Source of the DNA: a virus
Lineage: Duplodnaviria > Heunggongvirae > Uroviricota > Caudoviricetes
Length of the DNA: 13,929 bases
IMG/VR virus record: IMGVR_UViG_3300032038_000006
Strand: one strand, 5' to 3'
The position numbers were made by a program, and so were the translations under genes. The notes below the pieces were generated by a model, which made no database searches, was not told the origin of the DNA, and was given only the letters and a program-made list of their open reading frames with translations. Below, one piece after another: positions 3-13,929 of the stretch. Positions within the stretch are counted from its first letter, which is position 1. Each line of letters starts with the position of its first letter.

Positions 3-1031
3 GTAGATACAGGAGAAGGCATGGATGTTGACTGGAGCTTAATCACTACGGGGACATATACGACAAGAATTCGTATTCAGTCAGGAACAACAGTTGATGG
101 ATTGATATTTAAACCAATGCTCTGCACCAAAGCCGCATGGGACATTTCACAGGAATATCAGCCTTACAGACCGAGCTATCAGGAGCTATATGAAAAAGTT
201 GAAACGAATGAAAGCAATATTTCAACCGATGAAGCTGCGCTCGTTGAACTTGTGGACGGAGGAGCGAAAAATGCGATAAATCTCATAGCACCAACCACTG
301 TCAATGGAATGACAATAACGGACGCTGGGAACGGTTCAGTTACGGCGTCTTGCAATAACGAGACTTTATCAAGTGCGGCCTACCATTACAATTTAACGCC
401 TGAAAAAAAATACAAGTTTATAATATATGTAGAAAGTGCAAGTGTTTCGAAGGTTCAATTTAACTGCACTGTGTATGATATTTCAGCCCTTCCGCCAAAA
501 GAGCTTGGTAAGATACAGAGGATAACATCAGTCGGAACGTACTCCATTGATTTTGTAGCAAGCTCTTATGTCCGCATCGCAATTAATTTAAACTCTGGTA
601 CTGCGGCGACGGGCAGTGCAACCTATCGTGCAATGCTCTGCACCGCTGAAGACTACGCAATCAGCCCGGAGATTGTGCCGTATGCGCCGACGAACCGCGA
701 GCTGTATGAAGCCAAAGCTGACATTTCTGAATTGCATGCGCTCTTACCTAACATCACATCATCGACCACAATACAGGATTATGCGAATTCACTATCAAAG
801 GGTGCGTATACGGCGTTCATTGCGAATGTATCAAATCCTCCTGATAGCCCTATAAATGCTAACTGTTTTGTTAATATTTATGTATACAGTGCAAGTTCTA
901 TGGCTGTGGAACTGATTCCTTTAGCAGCCGCTGAAATGCCGCGAACATATACAATGCGGAAAATAGGAGGCGTATGGCGCGGGTGGTACATGGTAGAAGG
1001 CACTCCAGTTGCTTCGTCCACGCAGAGCTGA
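3..1031 (+). CDS. Putative tail fibre / receptor-binding protein, C-terminal part (5'-truncated; the frame is open from position 3, so ATG 21 is probably internal)
   Basis: The frame is open upstream of ATG21 (GTA GAT ACA GGA GAA GGC). It has two copies of a module ending in (K/R)xMLCT..x..YxP+xxELYE. The C-terminus RTYTMRKIGGVWRGWY resembles pyocin-knob-type tail fibre tips (recognition from memory). It ends at TGA 1029-1031 and contains no in-frame TAG. Confidence 0.65.
   Translation, partial: VDTGEGMDVDWSLITTGTYTTRIRIQSGTTVDGLIFKPMLCTKAAWDISQEYQPYRPSYQELYEKVETNESNISTDEAALVELVDGGAKNAINLIAPTTVNGMTITDAGNGSVTASCNNETLSSAAYHYNLTPEKKYKFIIYVESASVSKVQFNCTVYDISALPPKELGKIQRITSVGTYSIDFVASSYVRIAINLNSGTAATGSATYRAMLCTAEDYAISPEIVPYAPTNRELYEAKADISELHALLPNITSSTTIQDYANSLSKGAYTAFIANVSNPPDSPINANCFVNIYVYSASSMAVELIPLAAAEMPRTYTMRKIGGVWRGWYMVEGTPVASSTQS
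115..644 (+). repeat. Internal duplicated module in the tail-fibre ORF, with an exact 14-nt direct repeat CAATGCTCTGCACC at 115-128 and 631-644
   Basis: Protein repeats FKPMLCTKAAWDISQEYQPYRPSYQELYE and YRAMLCTAEDYAISPEIVPYAPTNRELYE. The exact DNA match was read directly. Confidence 0.8.
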
Positions 1032-1352: not shown

Positions 1353-2594
1353 ATGCCATTAACACCAGATAAAACCTTTACTTGGAATGGGTTAAAGGTT
1401 TATGAATATCTTTTAACAAACCATAATCCTTATGGTATTGATATGCCGGGTTATAATCTTCCTGCTGTTCCGTTGGGCGTTACTGTTCATAATACTGAGG
1501 CTATTTCAGTAGCTTCAAATACTACTCCTGCAGAGCAGTATACTCGTGCAACAGTTAACGGCAATATGAAAGACGTAAGAGTTCATTTCTACGTTGATGA
1601 TTATTGTGCTTGGTAGGGCCTCCCCCTTACTTTAAGTGGTTGGCACGCAGCTGACGGCGGCGGTAATGGTAATAGAAAAACTATTGCTATAGAAGTAATC
1701 GGAAATTCTGCAAAGGCAGAAGCTAACTGTGTAAAGTTAGTAGCTTATTTACTTAACAAATATAATCTTAATGTTGAAGATAATCTTTTTACTCACACTC
1801 ATTGGCTTAATGTCCGTGATGGTATTACTGGAAGTAACGATTATCTTAATACTCGTAAGCATCCATATAAATGGTGCCCAATTTATATTCTCCCTCATTG
1901 GTCAACTTTTAAAGCTAATTGTATAGCAGAGTTGAATAAGTTGAAGGGCGGCACAACTCCAGCAACGTCTGAAATGTATCGTATTCGTAAAGAATGGACA
2001 GATGTTAAGTCCCAGATTGGAGCTTATGCATCACTCGATAATGCAAAGAAGGCCTGGAAGGAAGGCTATAAAGTTTTCAATAGCAAGGGAGAAGTTGTTT
2101 ATCCAACTTCAGCAGCTCCTACTCCAACAACTCCAGCTAAACCAGCAACTCCTGCTGCTCCTGCGGCATCAGCTCAGAAATAGATTGATGTAATTTATAA
2201 AGTCCGTATAAATTCTTGGCTTGGAGAAATAAAGAATTGCAATGATTCAAATGATATGGGATATGCTGGTATTAATTATGCTCCAATAAGATGTTTAATG
2301 GCGAAAGCTTCAGAAGGAGTTCTTCATTATCGTGTTCACATTATTGGTGGCGGCTGGCTTGGTTGGATAACTAAGTATAATGCTAATGACTGGTATAATG
2401 GTTATGCAGGACTCCCAGCTTATATGATTGACGGAGTTCAGGCATATCTCACTGGCGTTGATGGATATGAAGTTCAGTATAGAGTATCCACTGTTGGTGG
2501 TCCTTATTTACCTTGGGTAACTGGAACTTAGGATTATGCCGGTATCTATGGTAGAAAGATTGATAAACTTCAAATGAAAATTGTTAAGAAATAA
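1353..2594 (+). CDS. Endolysin: N-acetylmuramoyl-L-alanine amidase (Amidase_2, XlyA-like) + SPOR-like domain + Pro/Ala/Thr linker + ChW-like cell-wall-binding repeats; 413 aa with 3 in-frame TAG (1614, 2181, 2529)
   Basis: SD AAGGAGGT at 1338-1345. The track ORFs 1353, 1932 and 2256 share one frame, interrupted only by TAG, ending at TAA 2592. Motifs VTVHNT, HFYVDD, W*GLP..SGWHAADGGGNGNRKTIAIE, FTH and KWCP match Amidase_2 (predicted Zn ligands H46/H148/C175, catalytic E114). YRIRKEW..KSQIGAY.SLDNAKK is SPOR-like, and YRVH..GGGWLGW / YRVST..GPYLPWV are ChW-like. Confidence 0.93.
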
Positions 2595-2596
2595 TA

Positions 2597-2620
2597 AAGG
2601 GGAGAGTTAAACCTCCCCTT
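2597..2620 (+). promoter_or_regulatory. Hairpin between endolysin and holin (weak terminator or translational control element)
   Basis: AAGGGGAG(2597-2604)/CTCCCCTT(2613-2620) form a perfect 8-bp stem with an 8-nt loop and only a short AATTT tail. It lies 2 nt after the endolysin stop and just before the holin SD. Confidence 0.55.
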
Positions 2621-2640
2621 AATTTAAAGGAGGGATAACA

Positions 2641-2967
2641 ATGGAGAGTATTTTTGCAGCTTTAGGTTTAGGAACTTTAGGCTCAATAAGTGCTATGGCA
2701 TTTTTGACTATGATTATAGTTGAAGTTATGAAAAATGTAGTACCTAAGAAATTCCCTACTTAGATATTAACATTAATTATTGCTCTAATCATTGCTGTTA
2801 TAATTCCATTCCTTGCACCTGGCGTTGTTGTTAGTTTTGCTACTATCGCGGCAAGTGTTCTTAATGGTTTTATTATTGCGTTCATTAGTATGAACGGCTT
2901 TGATTCCCTAAAGAAGATTTGGGAAAGGGTGATAGGAAAGAAGGAGGATGAAGAAAATGGCGAATGA
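2641..2967 (+). CDS. Holin, 108 aa, three hydrophobic segments and a charged C-terminus; 1 in-frame TAG (2761)
   Basis: SD AAAGGAGG at 2626-2633. Sequence: MESIFAALGLGTLGSISAMAFLTMIIVEVMKNVVPKKFPT*ILTLIIALIIAVIIPFLAPGVVVSFATIAASVLNGFIIAFISMNGFDSLKKIWERVIGKKEDEENGE, stop TGA. It is adjacent to the endolysin and missing from the ORF track. Confidence 0.85.
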
Positions 2968-5900
2968 AGGAAAAGAGCGCGAGATAGCCTTTTCTTTGCT
3001 TGAAACTGATGACCTCGGTCTTATTTCTTGGGAAAGTATTATTGATGATTTAAGTACCAATCTTTATATTGATGAAAAGAAAACTGGTGATAATACTTAT
3101 AATGGTAGTAGAAAAGGTTTCGATTAGAAATTTAGAACTACTATACTTGCAGCAGATGCAACTGGTACTCTTCAGGGCGAGTATTTAAATCCCAGACCTT
3201 TAATTAATAAACTCGGATAGACATATAGAGAAGCTCGTCATGACGAGATTCCAATGAATATTCGTAATATGGATTATACTAATAAAATCAAGAGAGAAGA
3301 CGAGGAAGAAGAAAGCGAAGAATATATGGTTGGTAGCCTTACTCTTGAAGAATTATATCATGCACTTGATATATGTAATGATGGTGTTCTTGGTATAGAT
3401 GACGCATGGGCTGTATTGAATATTTATGCAATATATTCAACTCATGCTGAGGCCTATGAAGTTGAATTTTTCAAGCAGATTTTTGAACCAATTACAGAAA
3501 CTGCTTTGAATGAAATTATGACAGAACAAGATACTAACTGGGATGTCGCTTTTGAGCATACCCTTGAATGGGATAGGGAAGGACAGCAATAGGAATATCT
3601 TACTTATGATAATTACCATAATAAGGGTAGCCAATATGCTTATAATGTAATTTATACTAATGAAAATGGTGACGCCATTACTCCCGGCGTATATCCACAA
3701 GATGAATCATATTTTTATGTAGACCATCATCTTGCGAAAGTTCACGGTGTAGACGACGATGACCCAGCAAAATATTATGAATTTATAACTTTTTATGTTA
3801 ATGATTTTGCAGGTAGTTGTAACATAGAAGACTGTGCCAATACTTTAATGTCAAAGATTATAAAAATAAGAAGATAGGGACGTTTAGTTGTTGATGGTAC
3901 ATTAGCTTCAACTATACTTTATCTTGTAGCTAACGCTAAAGGTGAGGGTCATGAAGATAAAGCATATATTACATTTGATGAGTTCTCAACTTTTGTTCAA
4001 GAACATGACGTATTCCCTATGTCTGATGCTGATAAACTTAAGAGATACCTTAATCTTTTAATGCCAAGATACTCAAGAAGAGTTGAGGTAGAAGATTTAG
4101 ATAAGAATTTCTGGGTTATTGGTTAGGTCCTTGATGCTCTTGCAGAGGCCGTATGGAGAGACGATGGTATCGTTGATGCTATTCAAGCTATTATTAAGCA
4201 GTTAAATAACGTTACAAATCAGGTTAATGCTCTTAATATTTTACTTGGTTTGAATGGTGATACCACAATTTCTTTGAGGGGCGGCACATGGGCAACTATG
4301 ACAAATGGATATGACCTTACTAATCTTGTTGCAAGAGTTTAGAGAGGTAATGGTACAAGAGATATATCTATTCCAATTACAAATAGTTATAATATGAGTC
4401 TTGATAATTATGACTATAGTTCTTGGAAAAACTATGTTAAATCTTGGAATAAGCCGCCTTCAGCTTCAGCTTTGGTTAGCGGATGGAATCCAGGTTCAAG
4501 AAAAATAAATGTGTATGATTTGTTCGCTTCTGAAAATGTAGTTCCTTGTTCAGAGACAGCTGCCGGCACAAGCTATTCTATTAACACGACAAGAATTGCA
4601 CACCCATTCTATTATTCATTAGCATAGACAAGTGCAGTTAGTTGGTATTATTCTACTTTAAAATCTATGTGTAATAATGGAGATGAATTTAGGTTTGTTA
4701 AGGATGTAAACATTTTGATGTATAATCCTAACTATTATTCATATAGCGTTGACGACTTAAATAATCCAACTACATTTACTATTACTGAAACAACGGTTTC
4801 AGATAAAACATAGGGTAAGCAAAAATATACATATGATATAACCAAAGTTCTTGCTTATGCAAATAGAAACTTAGCAGAATTAGAATTGATTATGATTAAC
4901 TTTAACCCTAAGTAGGCAGTCACAGATAAAATTGCTGTTGATGCAAGTGGTACTATGCCAACAAATAGTTTTAATAGCTATAACTCATTAGATATGCACT
5001 ATGAAAATGGTGCAAGAACTAATTATCGTTATAATGGTATGACAACTGGTATAAGAAATGCTAAGCTTGACGAAAAGATTGGTATTGGTATTCAGTATTT
5101 TTCTCCCGCTTTAGTAGATAAAGATGGTAGCTCTTTAAGAAAATCAGTTAAAGTTTCTAATGTTTTATCATTAAGACAATCAATGATGAACTCAAGAACT
5201 TCTGAAACATCATCTGTATCTCAACGTTCATTTACAGCAGAATTTCTAAGTGGTAGCGCACCTCTTGCAGTACACACAATGTATGGTGAAAGTGGAAGAA
5301 TTGGAGCTTGCTCATACGTTGTTTCTACTAATAGTTATGATGAAGGTGTTTCACAAGGTCCTATCGCCCAATTCCTAACATATAAGGGAATGGCGCTATC
5401 AAGCGAGGCAGGAAATAGCAGTAGCCTTTAGGCACGCTGCTTTGTTAACGAAAGCGGTAATATTATAAAATATGGCTCTAAGTATTTGCCTATAAAAAAT
5501 AGCTTGGGCGGCCTATTTGATACAATAACAAAAGATGGTACTGTTCTTGGTTGGAAATCTAAAAATGTTATGACATTAGGAGATTTTATTGATTTTACTG
5601 GTAATGACATTTATACTCCGTCTTCAAATAAAATAGCTGGTATTGGTAATATAAGAAGTTTTGTTGAAGGTATAGGATTATAGTATGGTAATGCTTTTGC
5701 CGTTGCAGAGTTCCCAAATGAAATCAATCCTTCTATGGCGCCAAGACTTATAACTGATTTTGTAACTGAAGGAGACGCTCACGTTTCAGACATAAGACAC
5801 TCAAGATAGATTATATTTATTCCTATTTATTATAGTAGAATAGATGGTGGATATAATTACACTATTTATCTTGATTTAACTCAATGCGGTATTGTTATGT

Positions 5901-6274
5901 TTAACTGGCTTGCACAATCAGAATCTTAGATGACTGCAAATAGTGGTAGAAGATTCATCGCTAAAAATCTCGATAATTATTGGCTTGATGGAAATGGCGA
6001 TGTATCAGGAAACTCCGATGGTTCTCACGTACCTATTGGATTTGCTATTATATGTGCTGCCGCAGGTATGCCAGATTTTACAAATCCTCCTGCCGGCACC
6101 GCATGGGCAAATGGATGTGCTACAGTTGATACATTAAATACTTAGCTATTTGGTAAGTCTGTTCTTGGTACTTATATCTTTGAGACAAACTCTCAAGGAG
6201 ATACAAGTGGATTTAATATGCCTCATTTTGCTTTACCTGCTGGTGGGGTAGATATTGATATGAATATAGTTTAA
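2957..6274 (+). CDS. Large hypothetical protein, probably virion-associated; 1105 aa with 14 in-frame TAG
   Basis: SD AAGGAGG at 2941-2947; overlaps the holin end by 11 nt. The track ORFs 3254, 4394, 4955, 5486 and 5930 are all in this frame. TAGs at 3125, 3218, 3590, 3875, 4124, 4340, 4625, 4811, 4913, 5429, 5681, 5807, 5927, 6143, and no TAA/TGA until 6272. The function is inferred from context only. Confidence 0.8.
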
Positions 6275-6281
6275 TATTAAA

Positions 6282-6318
6282 AGAGAGAAGTCAACACTTG
6301 ACTTCTCTCTATTTTTAT
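6282..6318 (+). terminator. Rho-independent terminator after the 1105-aa gene
   Basis: Perfect 13-bp inverted repeat AGAGAGAAGTCAA-cac-TTGACTTCTCTCT followed by ATTTTTAT, 7 nt after the TAA stop. Confidence 0.85.
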
Positions 6319-6326
6319 GCTATAAT
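6298..6326 (+). promoter_or_regulatory. Sigma70/sigmaA-type promoter with extended -10
   Basis: TTGACT(6298-6303), 17-nt spacer, TATAAT(6321-6326), preceded by TG-n. The -35 box lies in the 3' arm of the terminator. Confidence 0.8.
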
Positions 6327-6409
6327 ATTAATAAGTAAAGGATTAGACGTTTCGACTCAAATCTCTACTTTATTATGTAGAAAACAAATTGTACGGAGGT
6401 GCAAAGGAA

Positions 6410-6667
6410 ATGGCAAATGAACAGCGTAAAATGCATGAGTAGGACATAACCTGGGATGATTATGTTGCTCTCGCTGAACAGCCAGACTTTATGAATTAGT
6501 ACAGAGACCAGATATTCTTTGTTACAGATATAGAGTTTTCTGATGCTGTTGAATATTTACTTAACAAAGTAAATGAATTAATGATTAAGTATGATAAACT
6601 TGTCGCAGCTTATTAGGAAGACCACCCCGATTTTGACCCTGACGCAGAAGAGGAGGTTGGTACTTAA
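6410..6667 (+). CDS. Small hypothetical protein, 85 aa, 3 in-frame TAG (6440, 6497, 6614); possible tail adaptor or assembly factor
   Basis: SD GGAGGTG at 6395-6401. Sequence: MANEQRKMHE*DITWDDYVALAEQPDFMN*YRDQIFFVTDIEFSDAVEYLLNKVNELMIKYDKLVAAY*EDHPDFDPDAEEEVGT. Its TAA overlaps the next ATG (TAATG), a typical sign of translational coupling. Confidence 0.8.
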
Positions 6668-8874
6668 TGGGAGTTGTTTTCAGAAATGGTAGACCCTTTG
6701 GAGCGGCCAAAGAAGATGTTACTATTGTAACTAATTTTGAGGATTTAACTAATCTTCCAAATAAAGAAACAAATCATTTATATGTTACTACTTCTGATAA
6801 TACTGAATATTATTGGAATGTTGAGAACAGAGAGTTTGTTCCTTTATCTGCAACTTTTGAGATTGCGGCAGATGAAAACGAGATAGTAATAGGCGATGGA
6901 AAAGGTGGAGTAAAACCACATAGCTTTTGGTTTGCAGAAACGTCAGGAAGTCCTGTCACTTCTGCGAAATTGAAAACTCCTTCACCAACAATAGAAATAG
7001 GAAGTACAATCAGTGTGTCAGAAAACTATTGGGATAATGATAAAAATAATGCTAAATTCTTTATGTCTGGCTCTCCATTACTACAGATGATGAAAAAAGA
7101 AGGAAGTTCTCCTATTATTTCAATGCTTGGTGCTGGTGTCTTTGAGATGTATGCCGATTAGGCACATAATAATTAGATAGCTTATACCCGTACTTTGCCA
7201 AGATTTAGTTCTGGTGAGAAATGTCTGTCTGAAGTTGCTTATTATGCTTATCAAGGTTATTCTCCTTATGGTGGTAACTATACATATTTAAATAATTCAG
7301 AGATTTTTCCATATTTTCATATGTCAAATTCAAGTACAGTTATAATGGAAGGAGCTTCTATTATAAAAACGGCAGACAGTGCAGGCCTTGAAATGGCTGG
7401 TAATGCAGATGTCGTTATTCGTGGCGGAGCACTTACTGATAGTTACGGTAATTAGATTAATTCTGGTTAGATAAGAACTGGTTTATATATGGAGCCAGGT
7501 GCAATGATTAGAATGACAAGAACAGATAGTACCTACGGCGGTGCATATGGACCAATGATTGCTCTTGAAAGTAGTAATTCTGATAAAGGTCCTGGTAAAC
7601 TTGTGCTAACAGCATAGCACAATATCTTTGGTGGAATTTATGACTATGATAGCTCTAATAATTTTGATTTTGATGCTACTTTAGATAAACGTATAATTGA
7701 ATGTAGTGATAGAGTATTCAATAACCGTAGATTTATTTATAATAAATATATTAATCCAGGTTATCTTCCTGCTAATTTAGCTCCGAAACTTTTTTAGCCC
7801 ACATTAAATATTATGGGTAAAACTCACTTATCAATTGGCGATAGCGGATATTTAGCTGCTAAAATTGCACCAGATAAAGATGCTTATATTTCTATTGATT
7901 GGAGTGGATGGGGATATGAAGATGTCAAAATTGGTGCAGGCAAAGATGCAATAGTAACATTTAATATGTGTCATGGTAAAGAAGCAGTTGCAATGTATAA
8001 TATTGAGCCAGAAGCAAAAAGTAATACTACTTTTAATTATTGTCCAAATGGTGTTTCGAGTATTAACTATGCGCCGAAAGGTAGTTGTGCAATATCTTTT
8101 ACTCCAAATTTAATGACAGAAATAACTTGTCAATGGGATACTTTGGATGCCCTAATTGAAGGTGATAATGCTTATATCCAAACATCAGGAAATTTCCATA
8201 CTGAATTGCATGGCGGTTCATTTATAATGAGAACCACAACTCCCGCAAATGATAACATTATTTATGGCGGCCATCCAAGTAATTCACATTTAGAAAGAGA
8301 TTGGACTACATTTGTATAGAATGATTCTGAACCTGTCTTTTAGATGTATGATAAATCTAACTTTGCAATGGCAGCGGATATTGTAAGAGAATATACTGGA
8401 GTTTATAGTTTTACAAATCCAACATCAATGTCACAGTCAGATTTTGAAGCCTCTGCTGAATATCAAACTTTTTTAGATGAACTTGCTACATATAATAGAA
8501 CTTTAATATCATATACCATAAGAAATGAAAGCAATAATAGTGGTTATATCGTTCATATTAAATATAAATTTACAAATGATACTCCAAGAGTTGCTCCAGC
8601 TACATCCACCCATGCTCCTGTTTTTGAAATGTATGGAGAGTCAGAGTTGCGTCTTCGTGATGGAGCTTCTATTAGAGGTACAACAGTTAATAATGAAATT
8701 CAATTCCAATTTGATGATGGAACTAATTCAGTTAGCTTTACAGTTGCGGAATTAACTGCTCTTAAACGCTTTATTGGAACTCTTCCTTCAAGAATTGCTA
8801 ATAATGATAGCGAAGCGACAGAGCCAAATACTTTATATTTTATTCCAGGAGGCGATGAGATTAATGCAAATTAA
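6667..8874 (+). CDS. Putative tail fibre/spike-like protein, paralog A; 735 aa with 8 in-frame TAG
   Basis: SD AGGAGGT at 6651-6657. The track ORFs 6667, 7195, 7813 and 8344 are in frame. TAGs at 7159, 7174, 7453, 7468, 7615, 7795, 8317, 8341; stop TAA 8872. It is colinear with 10345..13179 and rich in Gly/Ser/Asn short beta-repeats. The function is inferred. Confidence 0.75.
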
Positions 8875-10234
8875 TGAACAATTCTGGGGCAGCGAATCTT
8901 AGTCACAGGTATGGGTGCCTGATGTTACTATCACTAATTACGATATACTTAATGCGTTTAATCAAACGGGAGGTTCTGCTTGGACTCTACCATTAAATGA
9001 TGAACTTGACACATCAATATGCCCATGGGCTATTAATAAAGATGCGGATATATTAAAGCTTACTTATCCTGTATCACATCGAATCGGTACAGACGGTTAT
9101 AACTGGGCTGAACCTAAATTTTATCCTGTCCACGATTATGAATCTGAGATAAGTGGTATTCCAGTTTACTTTGCAGTGCCTGGTTATACTGGTGGCGGAG
9201 CAAATAGTTTCAATTGGTCTGCTCGTAATGGTAATGATGTCATATAGATATAGAATGCATTGTTCAGAAATATGATATATCCTGTCAGAAACTTTGATTA
9301 TTCTAAACTATGTGTAAGTGTATGTATTCTGTATACAGATAGTGCAACAACTACAGATAATGTTGACCCTGGCACGTTTGATTACTACTTTACATCAGGT
9401 CAAGAGTCTTGGCGTGCTACTCATCCAATAGCAGGAATTGGTTTCCAGATATATGGTCGTGGCTGGGATAGTGATTATCCTAATGCATGGCAGCCTACAC
9501 ATCCTACATCAGGACAGCAAATGTTAATAAATACAATGGGCCGTAAAAAGCCTTGTGAGATAGCTCCATCAGATACTACGGTTGGCTATAATGTTGATTA
9601 TAAAGACGACTTTATGACACTTGTTAATGGTAACTTACTCAACGGTCTTGCTATCGGTGCATGGGCTAATAATTATGGTGGTAATGGTTGGACAGTTATA
9701 TCGCCTGATGGTAGCACTTGGGCACAGTCATATGAGCAAGGTGCGGCTGCAGAATTATCAGCCAGTGAGAGTAATCGTCCTATTCCTAAAGTACCTATGC
9801 TTGAAGGTGAAGAGAACACTCATTGGCGTATTTACTCTAACTGGGCAGGTACAAGAGAAGTTTATTTTAAGACTATTCTTGATGCGTCAACATTTGCTGA
9901 TGAAGAGGAGCTTAAGGCATATATACTTAGACAGGCTGCTTATCTTGGTATGTGGATATATACTAATGGAACTCCGCAAGGAGACCCTGGTTCTGATGAA
10001 CATTGGTATCTTGGTGAAATTGGTTCTAATGGTGTTACAACTGGTAGATATAAACAAGGCTCTTCAACTTCCGAGCTTGATAATTCAACTTGGGAAAGTC
10101 CTTGGGATAGTTCTGGCTGGAATGGTAGATAGCCCGAACCTGGTCCAACTCCAGTATCAAGTGGAAGAATTTTATTTACTGGAGACAATCCTCCAACAAC
10201 GACCAGAGAAATTGTAAGAATAAAAATCAATTAA
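8864..10234 (+). CDS. Hypothetical, probably tail-associated protein; 456 aa with 4 in-frame TAG (8900, 9245, 9251, 10130)
   Basis: SD GGAGG at 8848-8852; ATG 8864 overlaps the end of paralog A (alternative in-frame ATG at 8855). The track ORFs 8915 and 9260 are in frame; stop TAA 10232. It has a Pro-rich linker (QPEPGPTP) before a short C-terminal segment. Confidence 0.75.
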
Positions 10235-10241
10235 GTATAAT
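10212..10241 (+). promoter_or_regulatory. Possible sigmaA-type promoter for paralog B
   Basis: TTGTAA(10212-17), 18-nt spacer, TATAAT(10236-41). The -35 match is imperfect and the context is AT-rich. Confidence 0.35.
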
Positions 10242-10291
10242 TAAGGACAAATTGTTGAAATAACACAAGTTCTTTATAAAAATTAAAATGC

Positions 10292-10319
10292 GCCGCCCTT
10301 CTAAAATCTGAGGGGCGGC
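10292..10319. other. GC-rich intergenic hairpin (not a canonical + strand terminator)
   Basis: GCCGCCCTTC/GAGGGGCGGC form a 10-bp stem (one G-U pair) with an 8-nt loop. There is no U-tract on the + strand, but an A-rich run upstream gives a U-rich tail on the - strand. Confidence 0.6.
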
Positions 10320-10344
10320 ACACTATGATAGGAGGTAATAATAA

Positions 10345-13179
10345 ATGGGAATTATATTTCGTAATGGGATTCCCTTCGGCACAGCGGAAGATGATGTGAC
10401 TACTGTCTATGCCTATGAAGACCTTTTCGATTTGACTGATAAGAAAGAGAACCATTTATATATAGTTGAAGAAACAAGTATCCCTTATCGCTATGATGTT
10501 GAAACCGAGCAGTTTTATCCTTTAGGTAAAGATATGACTATACCAGGTGAGAATAATCAAGTAGTTGTTGCCGATGGTTAGGGAAAAGCAAAAGCTAATA
10601 CTGGCGGTTTTTATGCCTCTGGAAGCGATAATATTAGTAAAATGGATTTTGCATATCCTGAACTGGAATTAAAATCTTTAACTGAATACGCTCCAGATAC
10701 ATATTGGGGATTAAATAAGAATGAAGCTAAAATTCATTTAAAAGGAAATCCTTTATTGTAGATGATAAATCAGGAGAATGGCGGACCAATTATCTCTATG
10801 CTCGGTAGAGGCATAATTGATTTTAAAGGCGACTCTGATAGCCTCGAAGATTGTACCAATCCCAATTAGGCTTAGAGAAAATAGTCTTCATAGCCGACTT
10901 GGATGTCTGAGAATGCATATAAAGTATATAGCACTACTCTTTCTCCTTTTAGTGATAAATATATGAATGAAGAGGATACTATTTATCCATTGCTTTCTTT
11001 GAAACATTGCGCTACTATTTAGGCAACAGATACTGCGCTCGCTCAATTTACTGGTGGTTCATCTTTTGTCATTGGTGGTAATGCAGATGTTACTATTCGT
11101 GGAGCAAATGACATGAAATTTCCTTCCGTAAGATATGGTAGAACGAGAGTAAATATTGAACCTGGTTCGCATTTCATTATGCAAATGAATGATGATGGAT
11201 AGTAGTACCCTACAGCTCCGTTCTTCCTAATGGAAGGTTCTAAAACTGGAGGATAGATTATTCTATCAACAGCACTTAGGGCTACAACAGGAAAATGGAC
11301 AGAATTTAATGAAGGATATTCAAATTTCAATGGTATTAAATTTTTTGAGGGTCGTTCTCATCTTTTAGTTGATTGTAGTTCACATAATATTTTTGGAAAT
11401 GGTAAGAAGATTTGGTTTAAACTTGATGGGTATAGTATTAAAACAACAGAATTCCATTCCCAGATGGCGAAATATGAAAATACTACTTGCGTATTTTAGG
11501 GAAATACAAATTTAGTAATCGGAGACAGTGGACATATTGGAATGAGAATAGGTCCAGATTCCGGAGGAGATATATTGGTTGACTGGACTCCTTGGACAGA
11601 TACAGTAACAAATATTAAATTTGGTGGTATGACAGGTTCTGCATAGGAATATGCAATTGAGCCAGATACTGATGCAGTTCAATATGTTAAGTTTGGTACA
11701 GACAAAGGCGGAGCAACCATTTTTAATATAATCCCTCATGGGATGACTTCTTTCCAATTTTGTCCAGAAAATATTTTTGGTATGACAGTAACTCCGTCTT
11801 CTACTAATATTGTGTGTCAATGGAAACATTTAACAGGTATTTTTGAAGGACGAGATGTTTTCATTTAGATAGAAGATAATATTCATAAAGAAATGTTAAA
11901 CAATTCTATTTTTATACAAAAGGGATATTCAGACTCATCAATTAATATGAGTGATACGACAATAGATGTAAATAAAAAGAGATAGGTTGATTTAGAAAAT
12001 TTTTATATTCCAACTTCTTATACAGATTTTGAAGATTATTATAGTAATGATTACAATAAAACAATTTTCCATAGTGCAATAATGCACGTAGATAGTCTAA
12101 GTGAAAGTCTCATCCCTGACCAGTATACTAATTAGTATGTTAGAAAAACTAATTCTTATAAAAAAAGGATGTATCAAACAAGATTTAGCTGTAGCGATTA
12201 TTTTGAAATGATTATTTCTTATGTTTCAGATACTTTATATACAGAAGACGAAGATTTTAATGCAGCACAATATTTCGGTGCTTTTGCAAGCACATATCAA
12301 ATTAGTGGCAATTTGTCTTCTGTAAGAAGTAGTAAGTTATTAGGATATTATAATGGTAAATACTATTATCAAGCTGTACTCAGTGTTTATATCAAGAACT
12401 TCTTCTGCTATACTTTTAATCAGTACACTGTTGATATGAAATACAGTAAAATAGACAGCGAAGATAAATAGCTTATCATTCGATAGATGCACTTTAAAGG
12501 CTGTGATTTAAGCAGTCGAGCTACAGTAGTACAATCAGAACCGGTTGAAGTTTCTAATCCTGAATATACAATTACTACATCAATACAACATTTAGGAGAA
12601 GATTGGTCTCGTCCAATTTAGTAGGGCGGCGAAAATAGAAATGCTAATGGTTCTATTATTCAGACATATGATGCTTCAAACTTCTTAATGCGTTCAAATT
12701 TACCTAAGCCGGCAGCCTATAGCGGTGCAAACATAACCGTCGCAAATGACTATACTGGATATACAGATAAGAGAGAATTAATTACAGCCTTCAAAAATTC
12801 AGCTGATTATGATACTTTCTTAAACTCAATATCTTTCCCTAATGAATATGAATTATGGGATATTTAGGATATTACACCACAAACATCAACTAATGTTATT
12901 GTTTTATATACAGCTAAGAAAGTGGGTTGGGATGCTCACCTTAAATCTGTTGCTGATAATCCTGTTTTAGAATTAACTGGACAATCAGAGCTAAGATTGT
13001 ATGATGATATTTACATTAAGGGCGAAGTTGAATATGGTACTCCTGTCTATACTTTTGGAGACTCTAAACACCCAGAAGATTAGGTTAGCTTTACTCTTGC
13101 AGAACTTAAAGCCCTTAAAGATTTAATTGTAAATCCACCTACTCCTCCACTCGCACCTGCCGAGAATCAATCATTCTAA
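10345..13179 (+). CDS. Putative tail fibre/spike-like protein, paralog B; 944 aa with 21 in-frame TAG
   Basis: SD AGGAGGT at 10330-10336. The single frame is broken only by TAG (10579, 10759, 10867, 10873, 10882, 10891, 11020, 11200, 11203, 11254, 11497, 11644, 11866, 11983, 12133, 12469, 12484, 12619, 12622, 12865, 13081); stop TAA 13177. Homology to paralog A continues across the TAGs from the N- to the C-terminus. Confidence 0.8.
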
Positions 13180-13192
13180 GAGGTGAATAATA

Positions 13193-13929
13193 ATGAGTGA
13201 ATATAGAATACAAGATACTACACTTACTGGTATTGCAGATGCTATCCGTTCAAAGACAGGTAGCGCTGCAACAATTATGGTAAGTGAAATGGCAGATGAA
13301 ATTGAATCAATTCCAACTGGCGGTGGAGGAAGCAGCATTCCTTTCATTGGTGGAATTTCCAATGTTACAGAAAGATTTGATTTAAATTTAGCAACTTTAA
13401 TGCTTGAAGTAAATGCTCCAGATTATAGTTAGACAAGGGTTGCATCAACAATAATTTTTGAATATAATAATTCATGGGAACTTTGTGTGGCTTTTACTCC
13501 AATATATGTGACCAATAAGGTTGGGTGTATAGTTGGAACCGACTCAGAGGACTGTTATTATGATAATCCTTCTCTCGAATTAAGAACATCTGGCGGTGAG
13601 TATACAGAATGCTGGTTTGGTTTTACAAACAATAACAGGTCTTGGACTTATGATAAAGGTATAACATTTGATGAGCCATTAGTTCTAAATGAGGAATATA
13701 TACTCAAAATGGGAGTTAATGAAAATGGTTATGCTTATGTTACTCTTACAAGAGCGAGTACTGGAACGATAATTTTAGATGACCTTAGTACAGAAACTGT
13801 ATCTCAAACAAATAGTTATAAGAGACGTTTAGCATTAGGTTGCAATGCAAGAAATTCAAGATTCACTGGTATTGCAAATTTTAATTTAGCTAAATGTTAT
13901 TATAAAGAAAATGGAATTACTCTTTGGGG
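13193..13929 (+). CDS. Putative tail-accessory / receptor-binding protein (3'-truncated, more than 245 aa; 1 in-frame TAG at 13430)
   Basis: SD GAGGTG at 13180-13185. The N-terminus TLTGIADAIRSKTG...SEMADEIESIPTGGG is a motif I recognise from Bacillota phage tail-accessory proteins. After the TAG the frame stays open to the window end with a beta-rich, possibly concanavalin/LamG-like domain. Confidence 0.7.

Follow-up and report, generated by a model that had tools for sequence, protein, structure and literature searches.

Probable reading of TAG as glutamine in the lysis and tail-fibre module of an uncultured ruminant-gut phage

The 13,929-nucleotide (nt) stretch of DNA in IMG/VR virus record IMGVR_UViG_3300032038_000006, referred to as a whole as the window, was analysed for its use of the TAG codon. 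The window very probably represents the lysis and tail-fibre module, with TAG standing for glutamine (genetic code 15), of an uncultured tailed phage of approximately 120-190 kb from the ruminant gut, the host of which would most likely be found in the Oscillospiraceae/Ruminococcus group of the Clostridia. The reading frames of the module are interrupted by TAG only, and TAG is read as sense.

An exact codon count over positions 1353-13929 returned the 55 in-frame TAGs reported in a first-pass annotation of this sequence, distributed over eight consecutive genes on the plus strand, and neither TAA nor TGA occurred internally in any of the eight. Three TAGs were located in the gene at 1353-2594, one in 2641-2967, 14 in 2948/2957-6274, three in 6389/6410-6667, eight in 6667-8874, four in 8864-10234, 21 in 10345-13179 and one in 13193-13929. 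None of the genes ends in TAG; six terminate with TAA and one with TGA, and the gene at 13193 leaves the window open-ended. A GGAGG-type Shine-Dalgarno site lies upstream of all eight starts, and strong sites of this kind are confined to these long-frame starts. The compact junctions noted in the first-pass annotation, namely TAATG at 6665-6669 and 11-nt overlaps at 2957 and 8864, were found as described, and a recount upheld its estimate that TAG makes up 42% of glutamine-equivalent codons in the eight genes (55/130, the other 75 being CAA or CAG). Among the stop triplets found in the off-frames of these genes, TAG accounts for 19%, a share at which 55 TAGs out of 55 in-frame stops would have P ~2e-40.

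Coding cover, defined as the share of the window lying in stop-to-stop frames of at least 200 amino acids (aa), was 13.7% under table 11 and rose to 92% when TAG was read as sense. The gain was specific to TAG, with a TGA-sense reading (as in table 4) giving 14.8% and a TAA-sense reading 34.8%. Table 11 splits positions 1353-13929 into approximately 30 short frames of 60-290 aa. The open reading frame (ORF) upstream, at 3-1031, is free of TAG, and the left boundary of the recoded region at 1353 is therefore correct.

Relatives of the window were drawn from IMG/VR and Logan assemblies; an exact 58-mer match to the window was sought in IMG/VR and gave no hit. Two contigs, L003 and L043, were 96% identical to the window from position 1181 to 6800/6931, and a 122-kb contig, G001 (81% complete according to CheckV), matched it at 86-93% identity in the endolysin and holin genes and in a portion of the fibre genes. 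Synteny between L043 and G001 extends through the flanking ligase/RNase H, helicase and lysis genes, where nucleotide identity is 88-96%, with lower identity in the mosaic fibre genes; G001 can therefore reasonably represent the backbone of the window phage. A more distant relative, G006:C1 (CANRAW010000001.1, L104-L112; 166.8 kb or 166,779 bp, with a guanine-plus-cytosine (GC) content of 31% and 347 in-frame TAGs), shares 64-74% identity with G001 in common genes, mostly those of replication. It is filed in a rabbit-gut ‘Clostridia bacterium’ metagenome-assembled genome (MAG), and looks like a near-complete TAG-recoded phage genome that was probably either mis-binned or associated with the host.

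The amino acid for which TAG stands was approached by comparing codons at 50 of the 55 TAG sites, those covered by alignments to relatives with at least 60% identity; the tallies overlap, as relatives may differ in codon at one site. TAG was kept at 38 of the 50 sites, and was replaced by CAG at seven, by CAA at four and by GAG at two, with six further codons occurring once each. In the reverse direction, the TAG of a relative lay opposite a glutamine codon of the window at 10 of 17 sites. Glutamine was the commonest residue opposite TAG (24/41), followed by glutamate (5/41), and in a likelihood comparison using a substitution table from the same alignments, glutamine was ahead of lysine, the runner-up, by 87 nats and of glutamate by 97 nats. 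Individual genes followed this pattern. The holin TAG at codon 41 was kept in L003, L043 and G001, as were 13 of the 14 TAGs of the 1105-aa gene (2957-6274) in both L003 and L043, the remaining one being CAG in L003. Gene 6667, at 79% aa identity to its G001 counterpart, had six TAGs kept and two changed to CAG or CAA, and gene 10345, at 79% aa identity to that of L043, had 11 kept, seven changed to CAA or CAG and three to other codons.

The endolysin provides the clearest single site. This predicted N-acetylmuramoyl-L-alanine amidase of 413 aa (1353-2594, plus strand) contains TAG at 1614, 2181 and 2529 (codons 88, 277 and 393), and matches Pfam Amidase_2 over residues 40-150 (1.6e-12) and phrog_15001 (endolysin) over residues 3-352 (3e-83), the latter match spanning TAG codons 88 and 277. 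More than 2000 endolysin homologues were found in metagenomes, several of them on contigs of 145-190 kb. Of 120 database homologues, 119 have glutamine at residue 88, and alignment A1 shows no variation there; as recoded contigs are translated in the database with TAG as glutamine, the residue was rechecked on DNA. At 50 TAG-free loci, comprising a standard-code phage and MAG contigs of Ruminococcus, Oscillospiraceae and Clostridia, codon 88 was CAG in 32, CAA in 17 and AGA in one, and the single recoded locus in this check had TAG. Two standard-code relatives, L004 and L005, likewise have CAG at this site and gain nothing from a TAG-sense reading. As far as sequence comparison can tell, the residue wanted at the TAG sites is glutamine.

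A candidate decoder was found in the relatives. G001 encodes 49 tRNA genes in two arrays as well as a transfer-messenger RNA (tmRNA), the latter full-length on the minus strand of L036 at 17539-17884 (Rfam RF00023, 123.6 bits; ARAGORN tag peptide ADYAIAA), together an unusually large complement of translation genes for a phage of that size. Two tandem tRNA(CUA) genes are located on the minus strand at 51724-51879 of G001 (L038 11724-11879), both above the Rfam tRNA threshold, 3 nt apart and 66% identical to each other. Both would fold into an ordinary cloverleaf, in which the acceptor stem has 7 bp, the anticodon stem has 5 bp and the D stem is preceded by two bases, and their variable loops are short and hence not of the leucine, serine or tyrosine type. 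Neither is a two-armed suppressor with a spare glutamine anticodon. Both also have U1-A72 together with A73. The U1-A72 pair is a recognition element of tRNA-Gln for glutaminyl-tRNA synthetase (GlnRS) and the GatCAB amidotransferase; elsewhere in G001 it occurs in two tRNA-Gln, one tRNA-Met(CAU) and an offset tRNA-His, and in bacterial contigs of a Clostridia MAG it occurs in tRNA-Gln only. Assignment of isotype by overall tRNA identity was not discriminating, with Gln(CUG) second at 0.68 behind Cys or Met, and the isotype reading of the G001 suppressors leans on U1-A72 and on likeness of the anticodon loop. G006:C1 has one tRNA(CUA), which possesses the acceptor stem of the first G001 suppressor and adjoins a tRNA-Gln(UUG). 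Judged by these predicted genes, the phage lineage carries glutamine-like amber suppressor tRNAs; the tandem pair of G001 may be redundant or may be charged by different routes.

The proposal of the first-pass annotation that TAG is a sense codon decoded as glutamine (table 15) is thus borne out by homology across the TAGs, codon 88, interchange with CAG and CAA, purifying selection (described below) and the tRNA(CUA) genes of a relative. The alternative that survives best, though we regard it as very unlikely, is that TAG is sense but stands for another residue, be it glutamate (through a non-discriminating glutamyl-tRNA synthetase (GluRS) and no amidation), lysine, leucine or alanine. In its favour are glutamate being the second commonest residue opposite TAG, two sites of the 85-aa gene at which L003 and L043 have GAG while G001 keeps TAG, and the lack of a phage GlnRS gene among those found in related contigs. 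Against it stand the predominance of glutamine in the alignments with its likelihood margins over lysine and glutamate, the glutamine codon at endolysin site 88 in 49 of 50 standard-code homologues, and the four replacements by CAA, which is two base changes from TAG. The short variable loops of the suppressors and their glutamine-type U1-A72 pair likewise disagree with leucine-type charging and point to glutamine.

The host was approached through the relatives. In an alignment-based scan of bacterial assemblies, endolysin relatives were overwhelmingly from Ruminococcus, Oscillospiraceae and other Clostridia; an earlier scan of bacterial genomes with single-protein patterns confirmed no relative. 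By endolysin, the nearest phage records are Ruminococcus phages (61% identity), and the G001 DNA polymerase shares 39-40% identity with its counterparts in Enterococcus phages and SPbeta-like Bacillus phages. Sequencing runs holding 40-50% of the words of the window, shares that indicate relatives, came from bovine gut and wastewater metagenomes; the small RNA shares were given no weight as evidence. A standard-code host within the Bacillota (Clostridia) is likely.

The distribution of TAG along the related genomes was uneven. In the early region of G001 (14-68 kb), which encodes RNA ligases, a polynucleotide kinase, a helicase and the tRNA arrays, TAG occurred at 2.1 per 1000 codons with a share of glutamine-equivalent codons of 0.07, and the replication block (NrdD, topoisomerase II, DnaB, RecJ and DNA polymerase) was similar, at 2.3 per 1000 codons and 0.08. 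The corresponding values were 11 and 0.36 in the lysis/fibre block, and 22 and 0.46 at the end of the contig (117-122 kb). Approximately one third of the early-region TAGs are situated near one end of the called frame, within 10% of its length, which suggests that they are real stops or lie upstream of the true start. Several early genes (14-68 kb; 97614-100052) have their sole in-frame TAG in the final 2-9% of the called frame, and a topoisomerase subunit has TAG at codon 811 of 812, suggesting that TAG may still stop some early genes while being read as glutamine in late ones. In G006:C1 the TAGs are concentrated in the lysis/fibre block and in the genes for Dit, the tape measure and virion proteins. 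The description of positions 1353-13929 as a ‘late region’ holds in that they contain a lysis and fibre module; ‘late’ itself is deduced from the functions of the genes, and the replication genes of relatives also hold a few TAGs.

This distribution bears on a second alternative, that the host itself reads TAG as sense and the phage simply matches the code of its host, with no switch on infection. Such a case has precedent in phages of code-25 bacteria, which match the code of their hosts (bioRxiv 10.1101/2021.08.26.457843), and the placing of the host described above is indirect. A matched code is at odds with the uneven TAG share in G001 (0.07 early against 0.36-0.46 in the lysis/fibre block and contig end), with the several early genes that appear to stop at TAG, and with a relative carrying a tRNA(CUA) of its own. 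The MAG contigs of Ruminococcus, Oscillospiraceae and Clostridia that encode endolysin homologues gain nothing from a TAG-sense reading, and the Clostridia MAG containing G006:C1 has two release-factor genes. Code 15 is not known to us from any bacterium. We consider this alternative marginally less probable again than that of a different residue.

Were the TAGs real stops, the region would be a decaying or pseudogenised remnant, or a run of many short genes, as the 60-290 aa fragments obtained with table 11 would have it. The evolution of the frames speaks otherwise. Measured over full frames, the ratio of non-synonymous to synonymous substitution rates (dN/dS) was 0.11 for the endolysin, 0.19 for the 1105-aa gene, 0.21 for gene 10345 and 0.25 for gene 6667, and it ranged from 0.07 to 0.29 in eight of ten comparisons between the window and a relative. 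The exceptions were short genes with few changes, namely the 85-aa gene relative to L043 (0.47) and the holin relative to G001 (0.85). Nearly all of the frame length compared lies 3' of the first TAG, and with dN/dS low there, pseudogenes are therefore excluded. Furthermore, TAG positions are conserved across independent assemblies, standard-code homologues of the endolysin are full length with glutamine at codon 88, and strong Shine-Dalgarno sites are found only at the eight long-frame starts. The spectrum of in-frame stops (55 TAG, no TAA, no TGA), together with homology and purifying selection (dN/dS ~0.1-0.25) extending past the TAGs, refutes this explanation, which retains hardly any credibility. 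That TAG encodes pyrrolysine can be dismissed as negligibly probable, as the ARAGORN label ‘tRNA-Pyl’ is given to any CUA anticodon, the G001 tRNA(CUA) genes form an ordinary cloverleaf, no PylS was found in G001, G002 or G006, and the TAG sites align with glutamine and not with lysine-like residues.

Several points nonetheless weigh against the interpretation of the window as a glutamine-recoded module of a phage whose host uses the standard code. There are no tRNA genes within the window, and we infer a suppressor tRNA for the window phage from those of its relatives; similarly, its host is placed via genes of relatives. A search of related contigs for release factor and GlnRS/GluRS genes found none. 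Two TAG sites are GAG in relatives, glutamine and glutamate are chemically indistinguishable from sequence, and many Bacillota form Gln-tRNA via a Glu-tRNA intermediate. Some TAGs of the G001 replication genes lie inside homologous regions (NrdD codons 14 and 36; RecJ codons 52 and 98); with such internal TAGs in replication genes, the early/late split is therefore graded and not absolute. Finally, a role of TAG in timing is a model.

The remaining genes of the window, all on the plus strand, are consistent with a lysis and fibre module. A holin-like membrane protein of 108 aa (2641-2967), with TAG at 2761 (codon 41), follows the endolysin and matches phrog_18218 (1.2e-13) and phrog_1299, a holin family (1.3e-4). 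Overlapping it by 11 nt is the gene for the 1105-aa protein (2957-6274; 14 TAGs), of unknown family and probably a fibre or virion-associated protein, which returned no match in Pfam, PHROGs or, by tblastn with its 1108-aa form, GenBank phages; its orthologue in Logan contigs is called at 1105 aa with TAG as glutamine. The 85-aa protein (6410-6667) has TAG at 6440, 6497 and 6614, and its stop codon overlaps the next start in the TAATG junction. It is called at the same length in relatives, and its match to Pfam crAss001_48 (0.0061) was below the cut-off.

Two fibre-like paralogues follow, of 735 aa (6667-8874; eight TAGs) and 944 aa (10345-13179; 21 TAGs), which have approximately 100 N-terminal residues in common and then diverge, as was also seen in comparisons with relatives. 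Alternative fibre or receptor-binding proteins are usually built in this way, with a common N-terminus and a divergent remainder. Between them is a 456-aa protein of unknown family (8864-10234; four TAGs), the gene of which overlaps the preceding one by 11 nt and has GGAGG before its ATG at 8864, and the 5' part of a further gene (13193-13929; 245 aa, TAG at 13430) runs off the window. The five large fibre-like proteins had no family match in Pfam or PHROGs.

The ORF at 3-1031 (plus strand, TGA stop), which is outside the recoded set, encodes the last 342 aa of what resembles a fibre or receptor-binding protein. The fragment contains no TAG against eight CAA or CAG codons, its CAG:CAA ratio is 7:1 (28:47 in the downstream genes), and its GC content is 44%, with 40% at third codon positions (GC3) compared with a GC3 of 18-35% in the downstream recoded genes. 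It matches phrog_3971 (function unknown), and the Atlas gave weak leads to BppU, carbohydrate-binding module (CBM) and tail-fibre clusters. Close relatives had no DNA match to this ORF, their similarity to the window beginning at 1181; a tblastn search against GenBank phages also returned no match, and the best relative in IMG/VR was 47% identical. It looks like a receptor-binding tip newly gained from a GC-richer, standard-code phage. Just upstream of the fibre/lysis block, L043 (5455-5703) and close relatives encode an HPr-like protein of the phosphotransferase system (PTS; PF00381), which may be an auxiliary metabolic gene.

In the gap upstream of gene 6410 is a near-consensus sigma-70/sigmaA-type promoter (6298-6326, plus strand; TTGACT-17-TATAAT with a TG extension, matching at 11 of 12 positions), overlapped by a terminator-like hairpin of 13 bp (6282-6310, plus strand). 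It is the best match in the window and is positioned inside the TAG-rich block, although promoter-like sites in the window were not above the number in shuffled sequences (69 versus 60.9 +/- 7.1).

A mechanism can be proposed in which the standard-code machinery of the host would translate the early genes, which are free of TAG, during the period in which the tRNA arrays are transcribed. Host enzymes would then charge the phage tRNA(CUA) as glutamine, and this tRNA would compete with release factor 1 (RF1), such that the full-length endolysin, holin and fibre proteins could be made only after the suppressor has accumulated. Under the standard code the endolysin would end after 87 of its 413 residues and the holin after 40 of its 108, and TAG could in this way lock translation and delay lysis, as in the model of Borges et al. 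A sigma-factor-like gene in G006:C1 (163359-164621, minus strand; L112 3362-4621; phrog_5767, 3.1e-19) has 18 TAGs in 420 codons, so that production of a transcription factor would also depend on the code change. A bolder proposal, which we hold to be rather doubtful, is that the TAG lock replaces transcriptional late control and does not supplement it, with operons behind host sigmaA-type promoters being transcribed early and left untranslated until the tRNA(CUA) pair accumulates. The switch would then operate by tRNAs alone, with no release factor 2 (RF2), aminoacyl-tRNA synthetase or known RF1 inhibitor in the contigs seen, and the two tandem suppressors might serve different charging routes. 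The promoter at 6298-6326, a single predicted site inside the TAG-rich block, would leave room for such translational timing.

The same pattern and a timing model have been described in large phages of the cattle gut and other guts (Borges et al., bioRxiv 10.1101/2021.08.26.457843, subsequently published in Nature Microbiology), including Jade, Sapphire and Agate, large clades with several alternatively coded modules, genomes from the cattle gut and Firmicutes hosts (bioRxiv 10.1101/2021.08.26.457843). In common with the code-15 phages of that study are TAG as glutamine, a phage-encoded tRNA(CUA) (here in relatives), low GC content, an animal-gut source and a size of 120-190 kb, as well as recoded modules scattered along the genome and in-frame TAGs that crowd the lysis and structural genes, vary among those for replication and are lacking in early ones. 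Differences are the lack of an RF2 gene among those found in related contigs, RF2 being present in two TAG-recoded Agate and six Lak phages, and the 49 tRNAs, tmRNA and two different tandem tRNA(CUA) genes of G001. Neither the window nor G001 (81% complete) contains a terminase gene, and Jade, Sapphire and Agate would be the closest known systems by shared features and not by placement in a tree.

For crAss-like phages, code 15 has been proven at the peptide level (Peters et al., PMC9523058). The reassignment of TAG to glutamine and the late-gene bias are common to these, the Lak phages and the present lineage, but the crAss-like and Lak hosts are Bacteroidota whereas the relatives of the window lineage by DNA polymerase and endolysin are of Bacillota type. 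The phassvirus group, in which phAss-1 has a 136-kb genome with TAG in 41 ORFs and three suppressor tRNAs (Babkin et al., PMC10607447), is alike in genome size, in TAG-containing characteristic ORFs and in possessing several suppressor tRNA genes. It differs in that a megablast search of the whole window against GenBank phage records (to August 2025) returned no DNA match, which would place the window in another genus if those records include both genomes of Babkin et al.

Code-15 recoding, its late-gene distribution and the suppressor-tRNA mechanism are thus already published, and no new question is opened by the window. For annotation, the first-pass warning that standard methods would fragment the region is true under table 11, which would report the endolysin, the holin and five large fibre-like genes as approximately 30 fragments or pseudogenes, but a large protein collection already calls such contigs with TAG as glutamine, as do current viral gene callers. 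The window adds a tRNA-rich lineage of the ruminant gut, with a putative Bacillota host, to the known TAG-recoded phages, and its holin and endolysin, both with a predicted lock codon, would fit the proposed recoding-based delay of lysis.

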